Source: an uncultured Candidatus Micrarchaeota archaeon (lineage in GTDB: Archaea; Micrarchaeota; Micrarchaeia; Burarchaeales; Fermentimicrarchaeaceae). Taken from it: a DNA stretch of 64,000 nucleotides. Below the pieces are notes generated by a model. It did no database searches. It was not told where the DNA came from and saw only the letters and a program-made list of their open reading frames with translations. Position 1 is the first letter of the stretch; every line of letters begins with the position of its first letter. This document shows, in pieces, positions 40,046-43,522 of this stretch. The translations under genes and the position numbers were made by a program. The stretch is from contig CAVXDX010000004.1 of assembly GCA_963760615.1 (NCBI GenBank), forward strand, positions 78,223 to 142,222, given 5' to 3'.

Positions 40046-40454
40046 AGCATTCATATTCACACTGGATGCAATTCTCGCAATAATAGTATGTTCCATTCTA
40101 TTCGTTTTGACCTACTATATCCTCACAAAGTTCCAGTATTCCGTGGTGAGGAACACAGAACTTGATGATGTATCCTCCGATGTTCTCGCCTCTCTAGAGA
40201 AAAACCACACCTTGCAGAATTCAATCTACTACTCGCGCACATCAGATATACGCCAAGTCCTGAATAACCTATCCTCAACAGTATGCTCCAGCATGGTAAT
40301 CTACTCCTCCCAGAATGCCCCCCTGCTGATGGCACAGCGGACAGACTGCAACTGCACAGGGAGCCGCTCGCTTATTGTGAGGAGTTTTGTCATACCAAAT
40401 AGCAACGGAACCCTTTCGGAATACATGGCAAAAATGGAGGCGTGCTACCGATGA
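40029..40454 (+). CDS. Small pilin-like protein
   Basis: GKA|FIFTLDAILAIIV; CSS...CNC C-terminus. Start is GTG 40029 or TTG 40038. Confidence 0.8.
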   Translation: MSGLGKAFIFTLDAILAIIVCSILFVLTYYILTKFQYSVVRNTELDDVSSDVLASLEKNHTLQNSIYYSRTSDIRQVLNNLSSTVCSSMVIYSSQNAPLLMAQRTDCNCTGSRSLIVRSFVIPNSNGTLSEYMAKMEACYR

Positions 40455-42130
40455 AAAAAGCATTCCTGTTCTCAGTGATCTTCGTACTGCTTTTCACAGT
40501 TTTGCTAATCTTTTCAGTTTTCTACATAAACATGTTGCAGATGAACGAGCTGAATCTCGCTCAGGCAAGGAATATAACGAAGGTGGCGTACGCAATGGAT
40601 GATGTAAGAAGCGACATGCTTGATTACCTGCAGCTTTCAGTGAATATAAGCAGCAACTCTACTAATACAATCCTGAGCATATCGGATGTTCTTCCCTCAC
40701 CCTATGGCAACCCCGCCAACGAGCTCAGCAACTACAGAAGCTTCATAAATGGAACATACGCAAACCAGACAAATCTCATCAACTCCTCAAATATCTCCGT
40801 TATCTCCCTGAACACCACGGCTTTCGAGAGCGCTCCTTCAATTCAGTTCATCAATTCAAACTCTTCTCTGAATTTGAACTATTCGTACACCAACCTGAGC
40901 AAGAATGAGCTTATAGTCAACGGCTCTACCCTACTGACAAATTATTCCATAAGCATAACTCTGAATTCAAGCTGCTTGAACAGCAACTGTTCAAATGCAA
41001 CGTGGGCTGGAGGACCGCCGAATGTTGACAGCTCCACGCTAGGGCTCTGGCATTTCGACGAGGGAAGCGGGAGCTATGCTTACGACAGCTCCGGGAATGG
41101 AAACACGTGTACTTTCGCAGCGAATACATGGACTACCGGGAGGTTCGGGGGAGGCGCGTCACCGGTTTTTGGTCAGTCTTTTTATGTAAGTGATTCTAGT
41201 AGCTTGGACAGAGTTGGAAGCCACACAATAGAACTCTGGTTTAAAATAACTACGTTCGGTATCACTTATTATCTCGTGAGCAAAGATACGATCGGCGGCG
41301 TTACTACCACTGACTATTCAATAAGTATAGATTCAAGTACAAACAAAATTCGCGGCACCGTAGCAAATGGCACAAGCTCTGCATTCGTACTAAGCACCAA
41401 TCCAGTCCAGGCTAATACCTGGTATCATGTAGCTTTCGTTGTGAATGGGACAAACTTGACGCTTTACACAAATGGAGTGCTGGACAACATAACCAGTGAG
41501 ACAGTTACTCCTCTTCCCAACTCAAACAAATTATACCTCGGTTCTCCATACGGTGGTGGCTTGCCGTTCCCTGGAACAATTGATGAACTTGCAATCTACT
41601 CAAGGGCAAAGTCAGCAGATGAGATAGCTGCAGATGCCAACCTCTTCCACTGGGACTGGAGCCCTATCGCAATGACGAATAATTTGTCTGCGGCATGGCA
41701 TTTCGACGAGGGAAGCGGTAACCTCACCTACGACTCGTCTGCAAATAATAATACTGGAGGGTTTACTGGAACTCAAATTGCAGTGCTGCTTCCCAGCAGC
41801 GTGAATAAGGCGTATGGAATAAACTCCACATCAACTGACAATCCATTCATTGCAACGACAGAACTGAACTATTCAAATGTCAATGCAAGCGATGGCATAT
41901 CCGAAACTGTAAACGCTTCGTATACTAACACATGGGGAAGTAGCTGCCAGGCTTCTGGAAGTTGCAGCTGCGCTGGTGATTCCGGCGACTGCTTTGCTCC
42001 AGGAGTCTGCGAGAATATAGCTGGCTGCATCGCCAGCTGTTCCTCAGCTGTGAATGCCTCTGTGAGCAACACATGCGCAGCAGCTGGATCTGACTGTGCG
42101 CTATCATGCCCAGAAGGATGCCAAGGCTGA
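40451..42130 (+). CDS. Pilin-like protein with one complete LamG, the N-terminal strands of a second LamG and an 11-Cys tail
   Basis: MKKA|FLFSVIF; two WHFDEGSG motifs; the second LamG breaks off after NNNTGGFTG. Confidence 0.85.
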   Translation: MKKAFLFSVIFVLLFTVLLIFSVFYINMLQMNELNLAQARNITKVAYAMDDVRSDMLDYLQLSVNISSNSTNTILSISDVLPSPYGNPANELSNYRSFINGTYANQTNLINSSNISVISLNTTAFESAPSIQFINSNSSLNLNYSYTNLSKNELIVNGSTLLTNYSISITLNSSCLNSNCSNATWAGGPPNVDSSTLGLWHFDEGSGSYAYDSSGNGNTCTFAANTWTTGRFGGGASPVFGQSFYVSDSSSLDRVGSHTIELWFKITTFGITYYLVSKDTIGGVTTTDYSISIDSSTNKIRGTVANGTSSAFVLSTNPVQANTWYHVAFVVNGTNLTLYTNGVLDNITSETVTPLPNSNKLYLGSPYGGGLPFPGTIDELAIYSRAKSADEIAADANLFHWDWSPIAMTNNLSAAWHFDEGSGNLTYDSSANNNTGGFTGTQIAVLLPSSVNKAYGINSTSTDNPFIATTELNYSNVNASDGISETVNASYTNTWGSSCQASGSCSCAGDSGDCFAPGVCENIAGCIASCSSAVNASVSNTCAAAGSDCALSCPEGCQG

Positions 42131-42154
42131 TGACTGAATTTTAAGAGTGAAAAA

Positions 42155-43522
42155 ATGAAACTGGAACTGATGTTTGCTTTGCTTGCCGTGTTTTCGTTAA
42201 TTTTGCCCCTGCATGCCTACACTCCACCTTCACAAACGTGCTGCAATCCTAGTGGAACTTTATGTACATGCGGTATACAATCAGGAAGTTGCACCTACAC
42301 CTGCAACGGGGGGTGGTACCAATGCTATTCCGCCAATGACTGTGATTCCACCATTCCCTGCAATCACTTTGCATTCCAGAGGTTCACCTTTGACCTATCC
42401 AGCTACACCCTCGGCAACATAAAAAGCATCACCTACTGCTTCAAGGGTGACTACTCCTCAACTGGCTCTGGAACTGCATATTTGGAGTACTACAACGTAA
42501 CTAGTTCATCATGGGTATACGACCAGCCCATAAGTACTGGAGTCACCACAATGTGCCGTACACTCACAAGCATAACCGATGTTGTGAATGCAACATCGAG
42601 CATAACTCAATTTGCTGCGAGGGGTTACACCGGAGACTCTGGCAACATTACAATCGATGCAGACTTTGTGAACCTCACTATAAACTTCGGCGCAGGCTCC
42701 CCAGTAGTCTGGACTTCCGGAAAATTTAGCAATGCGGTAGGCCTCAACGGCTCGCAGCAGATTACAGTCAATGATTCCTCCAGCCTTGAAATAAGTGGGA
42801 ATATCACAGTTGAAGGGTGGATTAACCCAAGCACGGTGACTCCAGCATACCAAACAATACTTACTAAGGGAGACTCTTCAAATGAGAACTACGGGCTCTA
42901 TCTAAAAGGTGCAGAACTCTATTTTGAGTGGATTAACAGTGGAGTCAAATTCGCAAATACGACATCAGCAAGTCTCCAGGCAAATACTTGGTATCATGTC
43001 GCAGCAGTTTTCAACTCTGGCAACTACGTCAAACTGTATGTCAACGGTACTGAGATGGCAAGCTCCACACCTGCAAACGGATTGGTGACAACCACTGCAA
43101 ATCTAACCATCGGAGCGAACAACTCCAACAACTATTTCAACGGCACAATTGATGAAGTTGCAATCTACTCAAGGGTGAAGTCCGCAAGCGAGATATACGC
43201 GGATGCCAACCCCATGTTCGTCTCACTTAACATAAAAGACTCCCTCAATAGCTCGGTGAGCGCAAGAGGCGCCACAAGCGGCTACATAAACCCCGGTGCG
43301 AACAATACGCTTTACCTTACTACAAACAACAATGGAAACCTCAACATGACTGTGGGGGGCTATGCGGGAACTTACTCTCTCAGGCTCTACCTAAATAACA
43401 CCAAGGCGAACCTCTTTCTCACAGCAGTCCAGAAGGGTGTTTCAAGCATCCAGGCAATTCTGCCTGTCCAGCTGCAGATATACAACCAGATTTTCAATAG
43501 CCTGATAATCTCCCAGAAATAG
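42155..43522 (+). CDS. Secreted protein: Cys-rich arm, beta-sandwich fragment, C-terminal part of a LamG and a pilin-like C-terminal domain
   Basis: Sec signal MKLELMFALLAVFSLILPLHA; LamG resumes at GSPVVWTSGKF and ends GTIDEVAIYSRVKSASEIYADAN. Confidence 0.85.
   Translation: MKLELMFALLAVFSLILPLHAYTPPSQTCCNPSGTLCTCGIQSGSCTYTCNGGWYQCYSANDCDSTIPCNHFAFQRFTFDLSSYTLGNIKSITYCFKGDYSSTGSGTAYLEYYNVTSSSWVYDQPISTGVTTMCRTLTSITDVVNATSSITQFAARGYTGDSGNITIDADFVNLTINFGAGSPVVWTSGKFSNAVGLNGSQQITVNDSSSLEISGNITVEGWINPSTVTPAYQTILTKGDSSNENYGLYLKGAELYFEWINSGVKFANTTSASLQANTWYHVAAVFNSGNYVKLYVNGTEMASSTPANGLVTTTANLTIGANNSNNYFNGTIDEVAIYSRVKSASEIYADANPMFVSLNIKDSLNSSVSARGATSGYINPGANNTLYLTTNNNGNLNMTVGGYAGTYSLRLYLNNTKANLFLTAVQKGVSSIQAILPVQLQIYNQIFNSLIISQK

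Follow-up and report, generated by a model that had tools for sequence, protein, structure and literature searches.

The DNA window analysed here is a stretch of 64,000 nucleotides (nt) from contig CAVXDX010000004.1 of an uncultured Candidatus Micrarchaeota archaeon with a genome of 1.14 Mb, and the region considered within it belongs to a type IV pilus-like locus. On the forward strand, positions 38382–42130 hold four genes with class III-like signals, and a further gene without such a signal lies directly behind them. The last of the four is termed gene A and the gene that follows it gene B; the domains of a single modular type IV pilin are divided between the two.

Gene A (40451–42130, forward strand) encodes 559 amino acids (aa) and ends in a TGA stop, while its ATG start at 40451 overlaps the stop of the preceding gene as ATGA. 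The N-terminus carries a class III-like signal, in which MKKA precedes the cleavage point and FLFSVIFVLLF follows it; the full stretch behind MKKA is FLFSVIFVLLFTVLLIFSVFY. The leader and hydrophobic stretch agree with those of class III pilins, the 15-residue Kyte–Doolittle window exceeding 2 from windows 1–15. Signal and hydrophobic α1N segment together open the N-terminal half of a pilin domain (40451–40999, A residues 1–183), which is recognised by a minimal-pilin hidden Markov model (HMM). An intact LamG domain, LamG1, comes next (41039–41650, residues ~197–400; PF13385 at 99.9 bits over residues 249–396, cut-off 27.6), followed by strands β1–β2 of a second LamG domain, LamG2 (41690–41758, residues 414–436). 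This opening has the form AAWHFDEGSGN...TGGF, in full AAWHFDEGSGNLTYDSSANNNTGGF, and aligns to both insert-free and unsplit orthologs. The ~58 residues between it and a Cys-rich tail correspond to the N-terminal strands of a domain here called module X (41759–41932, residues ~437–494), as judged from alignment to uninterrupted modules and from an AlphaFold2 (AF2) model. The tail itself (41933–42127, residues 495–559) contains 11 Cys between residues 499 and 557, all of them invariant in 7 sequences, and its non-Cys positions evolve fast.

The junction between the genes (42128–42154) consists of TGA TGA (42128–42133) and 21 further bases, which include a Shine–Dalgarno (SD)-like GAGTGA 5 nt before the start codon of B; in the window this spacer is in frame with A. 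Gene B (42155–43522, forward strand) runs from ATG at 42155 to a TAG stop and encodes 455 aa. It begins with a putative Sec-type signal peptide of n/h/c layout (42155–42217, residues 1–21), MKLELMFALLAVFSLILPLHA, after which the chain continues with YTPP. Read by eye, the signal is MKLE-LMFALLAVFSLILPL-HA before Y; residues M1, L3, F7, L9, F13 and A21 are invariant in 8 sequences, in which the terminal [HD]A is also conserved. A lipoprotein signal was considered for B and is unlikely, as the spacing between h-region and first Cys differs by 2–7 residues and no lipobox pattern is present. The signal is followed by a Cys-rich arm (42218–42364, residues 22–70) with 9 Cys in residues 29–69, and by the C-terminal part of the module X sandwich (42365–42688, residues 71–178), in which the pair Cys95/Cys134 brings the total for B to 11. 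The remainder of LamG2 (42689–43204, residues ~179–350) resumes at VVWTSGKF (residue 184) and matches PF13385 at 113.5 bits over residues 198–347 (cut-off 27.6), and the C-terminal half of a pilin domain, again recognised by the minimal-pilin HMM, completes the chain (43205–43519, residues 351–455). An initial annotation, made from the letters of this DNA and its open reading frames, had described the class III signal on A, the Sec signal on B, the motifs, the TGA TGA and the in-frame spacer, and had counted 11 Cys in the tail of A, 9 in the arm of B and 11 in B as a whole; every one of these details and counts is correct.

By homology to uninterrupted relatives, four units nested one within another are each divided between A and B, namely the pilin domain, LamG2, module X and a Cys-rich excursion. 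The pilin domain is divided into A 1–183 and B 354–452. Positions 1–164 of the minimal-pilin HMM match the former (E 1e-28) and positions 174–268 the latter (E 8e-16), so that the end of B represents the C-terminal part (a third to ~40%) of the pilin fold of A; the HMM was built from pilin-like proteins of 268–271 aa from other families of the same order, which are themselves uncharacterised. LamG1 is complete, whereas LamG2 does not form a complete jelly-roll on either chain: its N-terminal WxFDE...DSSGNGN strands are in A and the rest is in B. Insert-free orthologs read LamG2 in one piece, as ...AVWHFDEG...DSSGNGNTGTLNGA continuing directly into TWNASGKY..., while in the window LamG character ends in A after ...NNNTGGFTGT and is picked up in B at VVWTSGKF. 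In the alignment with these orthologs, the insert falls precisely between ...DSSGNGNTGxxxG and W..GK, at 41759–42701, within ~10 nt of the 41770–42694 first proposed; this alignment and the PF13385 match bear out the earlier observation that LamG resumes exactly where it broke and is followed by the pilin C-terminus. Module X is divided into A ~437–494 and B ~71–178, and the Cys-rich excursion, inside which the break falls, into 11 Cys in A and 9 in B. The initial annotation had counted three divided domains; the division holds, and the number rises to four with the pilin domain itself. Unsplit proteins have continuous Cys-rich sequence at the site of the break, with no hydrophobic segment, and split forms carry extra sequence there: the end of the A tail, the spacer and the signal peptide of B.

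Module X, the insert in LamG2, is found without interruption as well, at the N-terminal end of several further secreted Micrarchaeota proteins (P0009, P0010, P0013, P0020–P0026). It is rare, with 53 hits among 1.84 billion representatives, and neither a Pfam family nor a specific carbohydrate-binding module (CBM) family matched it. Folded alone by AF2 from 25 sequences, an uninterrupted module reaches a predicted local distance difference test (pLDDT) score of 84 and a predicted template modelling score of 0.78; the model shows one β-sandwich of CBM-like form, from which a Cys-rich excursion of ~100 residues (~64–160) extends. The best match by VIA is the phage phi812 baseplate chain 9euf_H (Z 12.2, root-mean-square deviation 3.5, 155 aligned), and many CBMs match at Z 8–9; Foldseek returns E-values no lower than 3.5e-5 and low TM-scores, since it leaves the Cys-rich excursion without a match. 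On this model, module X is likely to belong to the CBM-like β-sandwich fold class. Since the structural matches cover residues 6–284, the N-terminal strands (KAY..SST...), which are encoded in A in split loci, would be part of the same sandwich. Two further candidates for a split module X were rejected. P0034 (146 aa; L036:2476–2936, a Logan contig of SRR28530378) seemed to offer a second, independent split, but its stop lies in a terminal Illumina adapter at the contig end (AGATCGGAAGAGCGTCGTGTA), a contamination in the public assembly; P0028 is cut by a contig end.

To follow the distribution of the split, B was compared with 60 related genomes in all six frames, and a large protein collection was searched as well. 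Three states are found at one syntenic position: split, unsplit and insert-free. The split arrangement is present in the metagenome-assembled genome (MAG) Sv174 of the same genus (G003, 88% identity) and in MAG DRTY-6 bin 19 of another genus of the family (G006, 60%), and among the B-type proteins P0003–P0006 and A-type proteins P0016–P0019 each B stands directly behind an A and before a T2SSF gene. It thus occurs in at least 8 independent contigs from two genera (the window, G003, G006 and the contigs with P0003, P0004/P0018, P0005/P0019, P0006 and P0017), which come from different samples and assemblers and show 57–88% protein identity, and every split pair sits upstream of a convergent T2SSF gene. 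The unsplit state is represented by G002, of the same genus, with a single open frame of 1021 codons (1015 aa from ATG), and by the proteins P0007 (1008 aa) and P0008 (1017 aa). Insert-free single-chain orthologs of 705–726 aa with an intact LamG2 are found in G004, G005 and a second G003 contig. The initial annotation had suggested a search for unsplit and for identically split homologs, and both exist. MAG Sv174 holds a split and an insert-free locus in the same synteny (G003:C47 and G003:C18; L020, L023), and therefore either has two pilus loci in its genome or contains two strains in the bin.

Comparison of the junctions covers the seven split loci with DNA. Gene A ends in TGA, TAG or TAA, and a spacer of 8–29 nt leads to the ATG of B, which is preceded by a purine-rich, SD-like motif (GAGTGA, GAGGGA or GGTGA). 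Relative to A, B is in frame 0, +1 or +2, and in six of the seven loci the two frames differ. In the ortholog L024, the stop of B is itself TGA. Such varied stops, spacers and frames across contigs exclude assembly error, pseudogenisation in one strain, stop reassignment, read-through and programmed frameshifting. Recoding, whereby read-through, TGA reassignment, a frameshift or a ribosome hop would yield a single polypeptide, draws on the position of B in the window, in frame with A behind TGA TGA. The orthologous junctions with TAG, TAA and TGA, the +1 or +2 frames and the TGA stop of B in L024 contradict it, as does the hydrophobic signal, which is under purifying selection and absent from the unsplit forms, the true single-chain orthologs; this explanation is very improbable and effectively refuted. 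The read-through peptide LNFKSEK envisaged by the initial annotation is likewise refuted, given the different frame of B in these six loci.

Selection on the two genes was estimated pairwise, by the Nei–Gojobori method, as the ratio of nonsynonymous to synonymous substitution rates (dN/dS). For most segments, that is the LamG2 strands in A, the parts of module X, and LamG2 and the pilin C-terminal half in B, dN/dS lies at ~0.1–0.4. Values are 0.1–0.26 for LamG2 strands β1–β2 in A, 0.16–0.33 in most pairs and 0.66 in one for the module X N-terminal strands in A, 0.11–0.45 for the pilin C-terminal half of B, and 0.06–0.6 for the signal peptide of B. A stop in mid-domain is a classic sign of decay, and the apparent split of P0034 did turn out to be an adapter artefact, so that a pseudogene or an artefact of assembly or sequencing has to be weighed for the A/B split as well. 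Against this, the frames are open in eight independent contigs at 57–88% identity, dN/dS stays well under 1 for the greater part of the two genes, and the halves have gained a signal peptide and a start codon with an SD-like motif. The conservation of the split effectively refutes this rival, whose probability is close to nil, and upholds the earlier statement that both reading frames are open and not decayed, the split being kept in 7 further contigs. It is almost certain that the split represents a conserved functional fission.

The fission seems to have a single origin and a complex later history. In the tree of module X, all split forms make up one clade (100/100) on a long branch apart from the uninterrupted modules, and their B signal peptides are mutually alignable; fission therefore happened once. 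The flanks tell a different story: those of G006 (L019) group with the unsplit P0007, both for the pilin N-terminal half and for LamG2 with the pilin C-terminal half (100/98 and 95/95), and module X of P0007 groups with that of the non-pilin protein P0010 (100/99). A double origin of the split, suggested by these flank trees, was rejected in view of the monophyletic module X and signal peptides of the split forms. The conflict between module X and flank trees is better read as recombination of the central cassette, both between pilin loci and between pilin and non-pilin genes, and cassettes of module X and LamG appear to be shuffled between genes in this way. Parsimony points to a change from unsplit to split: no break interrupts the module in at least 15 other contexts, and a signal peptide within a domain can only be a derived feature.

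Whether the two chains could fit together was addressed with an ESMFold2 model of mature A (5–559) and mature B (22–455), built with custom alignments. The interface score ipSAE is 0.72, 0.64 and 0.67 in three runs (median 0.67), and the best of 3 controls reaches 0.00; of 80 solved complexes, 58 attain the benchmark mark for ipSAE, as against 2 of 110 mismatched pairs, a calibration that is approximate because custom alignments were used. The runs share at least 60% of their 782–899 contacts, with a partner pLDDT of at least 73, and the contacts cover the halves of the pilin domain, LamG2 and module X. In A, the confident interface comprises residues 41–57, 64–82, 117–136 and 152–188 of the pilin N-terminal half, residues 398–455 (linker, LamG2 β1–β2 and module X strands) and residues 484–489; in B, it comprises residues 72–84 and 150–178 of module X, residues 184–222 and 317–350 of LamG2, including IDEVAIY, and residues 352–455 of the pilin C-terminal half. 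The contacts of lowest error are strand pairings in the pilin sheet, between A 74–79 and 166–170 and B 419–425. The LamG2 strands of A (414–436) contact B 184–222 and 317–350, its module X strands (~437–494) contact B 72–84 and 150–178, and LamG1 makes no contacts with B. The pLDDT of B is 74–76 with A and 61 with an unrelated chain, and that of A is 66–70 with B and 51–54 with an unrelated partner. The complex model that the initial annotation had called for thus stands clear of its controls.

These results also bear on a rival explanation in which a genuine, conserved fission is not followed by reassembly of the chains: B would be a free secreted lectin, A a truncated pilin bearing LamG1, and the leftover strands tolerated remnants. 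Such independence would suit the completeness of LamG1 in A, the almost full coverage of the Pfam LamG model within B (profile positions 2–150) and the fast evolution of the A Cys-tail. It would leave A without ~40% of its pilin domain, however, and the last 100 residues of B belong to a pilin fold and would be meaningless in a free lectin. Moreover, the leftover LamG2 and module X strands in A and the pilin C-terminal half in B are under purifying selection, and the fold confidence of each chain falls by ~15 pLDDT points without the cognate partner; we consider this explanation unlikely.

Cys content offers a hint as to how the chains might be held together. The 11 Cys of the A tail and the 9 of the B arm align throughout 7 sequences, and B has 2 more in the sandwich; uninterrupted modules have 14–16. 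P0008 lacks both sandwich Cys, a joint loss that makes their pairing with each other probable. In the alignment, which is rich in gaps in this region, an odd number of Cys stands both before and after the site that corresponds to the break; full oxidation of all Cys would then require one or more disulfides between the chains. An inter-chain disulfide is therefore suggested by the parity of 11 + 11 Cys.

Taken as a whole, the evidence indicates that A and B are probably the products of an ancient, conserved fission of one modular Micrarchaeota type IV pilin, whose two chains reassemble. We infer that reassembly takes place in trans, outside the cell; this is well supported by the conserved split, purifying selection, the uninterrupted relatives of each unit and the performance of the complex model against controls, in line with the rebuilding in trans put forward in the initial annotation. 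None of the outcomes that it had named as refuting appeared; independent assemblies served as the check for a chimera. The density of N-glycosylation sequons, 5.0 per 100 aa in A and 3.5 in B as against 0–0.9 in the ATPase and platform proteins, fits an extracellular location of both chains. The more detailed scheme, with export by two routes, co-folding that completes the pilin, LamG and CBM-like sandwich folds, an inherited inter-chain disulfide lock and a non-pilin chain held covalently inside a pilin, is tentatively favoured, with little to spare.

In the course of events that we consider probable, the ancestral protein was a chain of ~1010 aa, as is still intact in relatives, with a pilin domain that held two LamG lectin domains in a loop; LamG2 carried module X, module X carried the Cys-rich excursion, and the break arose inside the excursion. 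The downstream half would then have been equipped with a start codon behind an SD-like ribosome-binding site, and with a Sec-type signal peptide; a whole-genome search found no DNA resembling the signal peptide of B elsewhere in the genome. A would be inserted in the membrane via its class III signal and α1 helix, and B would be exported by Sec, with its signal presumably cut by signal peptidase I (SPase I). The chains may then co-fold on the outer face of the membrane, A giving α1 and the first ~164 pilin positions, LamG2 β1–β2 and the first strands of module X, and B the complements of all three. The Cys-rich arms (11 + 9 Cys) could pack together, probably with at least one inter-chain disulfide. 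The heterodimer of ~990 residues would be processed by prepilin peptidase and loaded by the adjacent ATPase and platform, and the product would be a bulky, putatively glycan-binding minor subunit, probably at the tip, with three lectin-like domains for host attachment. The proposal that B serves as an exchangeable tip module finds no support: there is one B per locus, always beside its A, and there are no extra B paralogs in the genome.

Several observations weigh against this reconstruction. The alignments behind the complex model are shallow (7 and 8 rows), and its pass may reflect sequence complementarity from the model's memory of abundant LamG and CBM folds rather than binding. The Cys-rich arms lie outside the confident interface, and AF2 folds the whole unsplit ortholog from G002 with a mean pLDDT of 57, the pilin domain and the N-terminal part and Cys region of module X falling below 50. 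For the disulfide lock, Cys parity is the sole basis, and L024 has one extra Cys in the B arm (10, and 12 in B as a whole). Between close relatives the dN/dS of the A Cys-tail exceeds 1, and it is 0.4–0.6 at intermediate distance (over ~60 codons); an exposed surface scaffolded by disulfides would show this pattern if its non-Cys sites were under diversifying or relaxed selection. Finally, an archaeal SPase I is matched in the genome only below the curated cut-off. The sole match (TIGR02228; G000:C5:5185–5949) consists of two 23-bit pieces within one frame of 334 codons, which may be a divergent or insert-bearing SPase I.

The machinery for assembly lies next to the pair. Two T2SSF platform genes, single-domain and TadB/TadC-like, and a T2SSE ATPase gene, all identified by Pfam matches, occupy the reverse strand at 43523–47235, convergent to B; the T2SSE match scores 122.7 bits and adjoins the two T2SSF genes beside A/B. 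A Peptidase_A24 (prepilin peptidase) match of 27 bits (cut-off 26.5) is located 16 kb upstream on the same contig. A further rival accepts that A and B reassemble and places them in a short 'bindosome'-like or pseudopilus surface structure that displays lectins, not in an extended pilus. Archaeal class III signals are also found on surface-anchored proteins that do not form filaments, such as the sugar-binding proteins of Sulfolobus and the Bas system, and most of the pilin-like proteins of the locus are bulky and bear lectins. The full set of ATPase and platform at the locus speaks rather for a pilus, as do the pili-like filaments seen on Micrarchaeota cells (PMC5498576; bioRxiv 10.1101/2024.05.20.594898). 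The present results accord with either reading, and the bindosome-like alternative is given a low probability.

Precedents exist for modular pilins, for gene fission and for strand complementation, and the A/B pair can be set against all three. The type IV pilins PilC, with a lectin module, and PilB, with a von Willebrand factor A module, of Streptococcus sanguinis are modular (PMC9934059, PMC10191384). Like PilC, which is a minor pilin with a proposed tip position and a role in glycan-dependent adhesion, A/B combines a pilin moiety with a concanavalin A/LamG-like lectin module. PilC and PilB are single polypeptides with a C-terminal module, whereas A/B has its modules within the pilin fold, in up to four levels of nesting, and comes from two genes whose export signals differ. 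B has no class III signal, would be exported separately and would ride on pilin subunits in the manner of the non-pilin tip effectors PilC/PilY1 and TcpF (PMC10191384). It differs from PilY1, an autonomous fold that docks on a minor-pilin complex, in being the missing half of the pilin, LamG and CBM-like folds of its partner. In chaperone–usher pili, archaeal threads and bundling pili, an incomplete β-sandwich is likewise completed by a second exported chain (PMC9715654, PMC12337348). These donor-strand filaments, however, exchange one strand between identical or similar subunits and so polymerise, whereas A/B would be a 1:1 heterodimer that completes three folds at once. The locus encodes type IV machinery only and the predicted complementation is within the heterodimer, so A/B is not a donor-strand pilus and the likeness is one of analogy.

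Fission of genes into jointly working halves is a trait of DPANN archaea, as in Nanoarchaeum equitans. To our knowledge, the known cases concern cytoplasmic or membrane proteins, usually split between domains. The TadB/TadC platform provides another example, its halves being separate polypeptides that work together (PMC10191384). Unlike these fissions, that of A/B runs through nested extracellular domains and required a new signal peptide. In the same phylum, the ARMAN-2 relative Mia14 has LamG-like jelly-roll proteins that are linked to type IV pilus loci, with a proposed role in host contact (PMC5498576). The association of LamG with a type IV pilus locus is thus shared, although the work on Mia14 covers expansion and linkage, with no nesting, module X or split (PMC5498576). 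No description of a conserved fission through nested extracellular domains, offset by a second export signal, was found in the literature, in agreement with the earlier remark that no equivalent had been described. If the interpretation is true, A/B would be the first multi-domain extracellular fragment complementation fixed by evolution, a natural split-protein system outside the cell. Should the halves reassemble, complex nested folds would be rebuilt from separately translocated chains at the archaeal surface, a non-pilin chain would have a new route for loading on a type IV filament, and a natural template for extracellular split-protein tools would be at hand. The pair is also relevant to the way in which host-dependent DPANN archaea construct and vary the lectins by which they attach to their hosts.

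Upstream of A, three pilin-like genes with class III-like signals (38382–40454, forward strand) encode proteins of 148 aa, 405 aa with an intact LamG, and 141 aa, and their synteny is kept in relatives. In the 405-aa pilin (38828–40045), LamG is likewise inserted within the pilin fold, and relatives of this pilin (L019, L021, L022, L023) measure 180–197 aa and have no LamG; domain insertion into pilin loops is therefore recurrent at this locus. Further upstream, at 35642–38323, lies the gene for a secreted protein of 893 aa with 54 Cys, an fn3 match and 34 N-glycosylation sequons. In relatives, orthologs of this protein stand first in the corresponding locus, some of them with module X instead (P0009, P0013).

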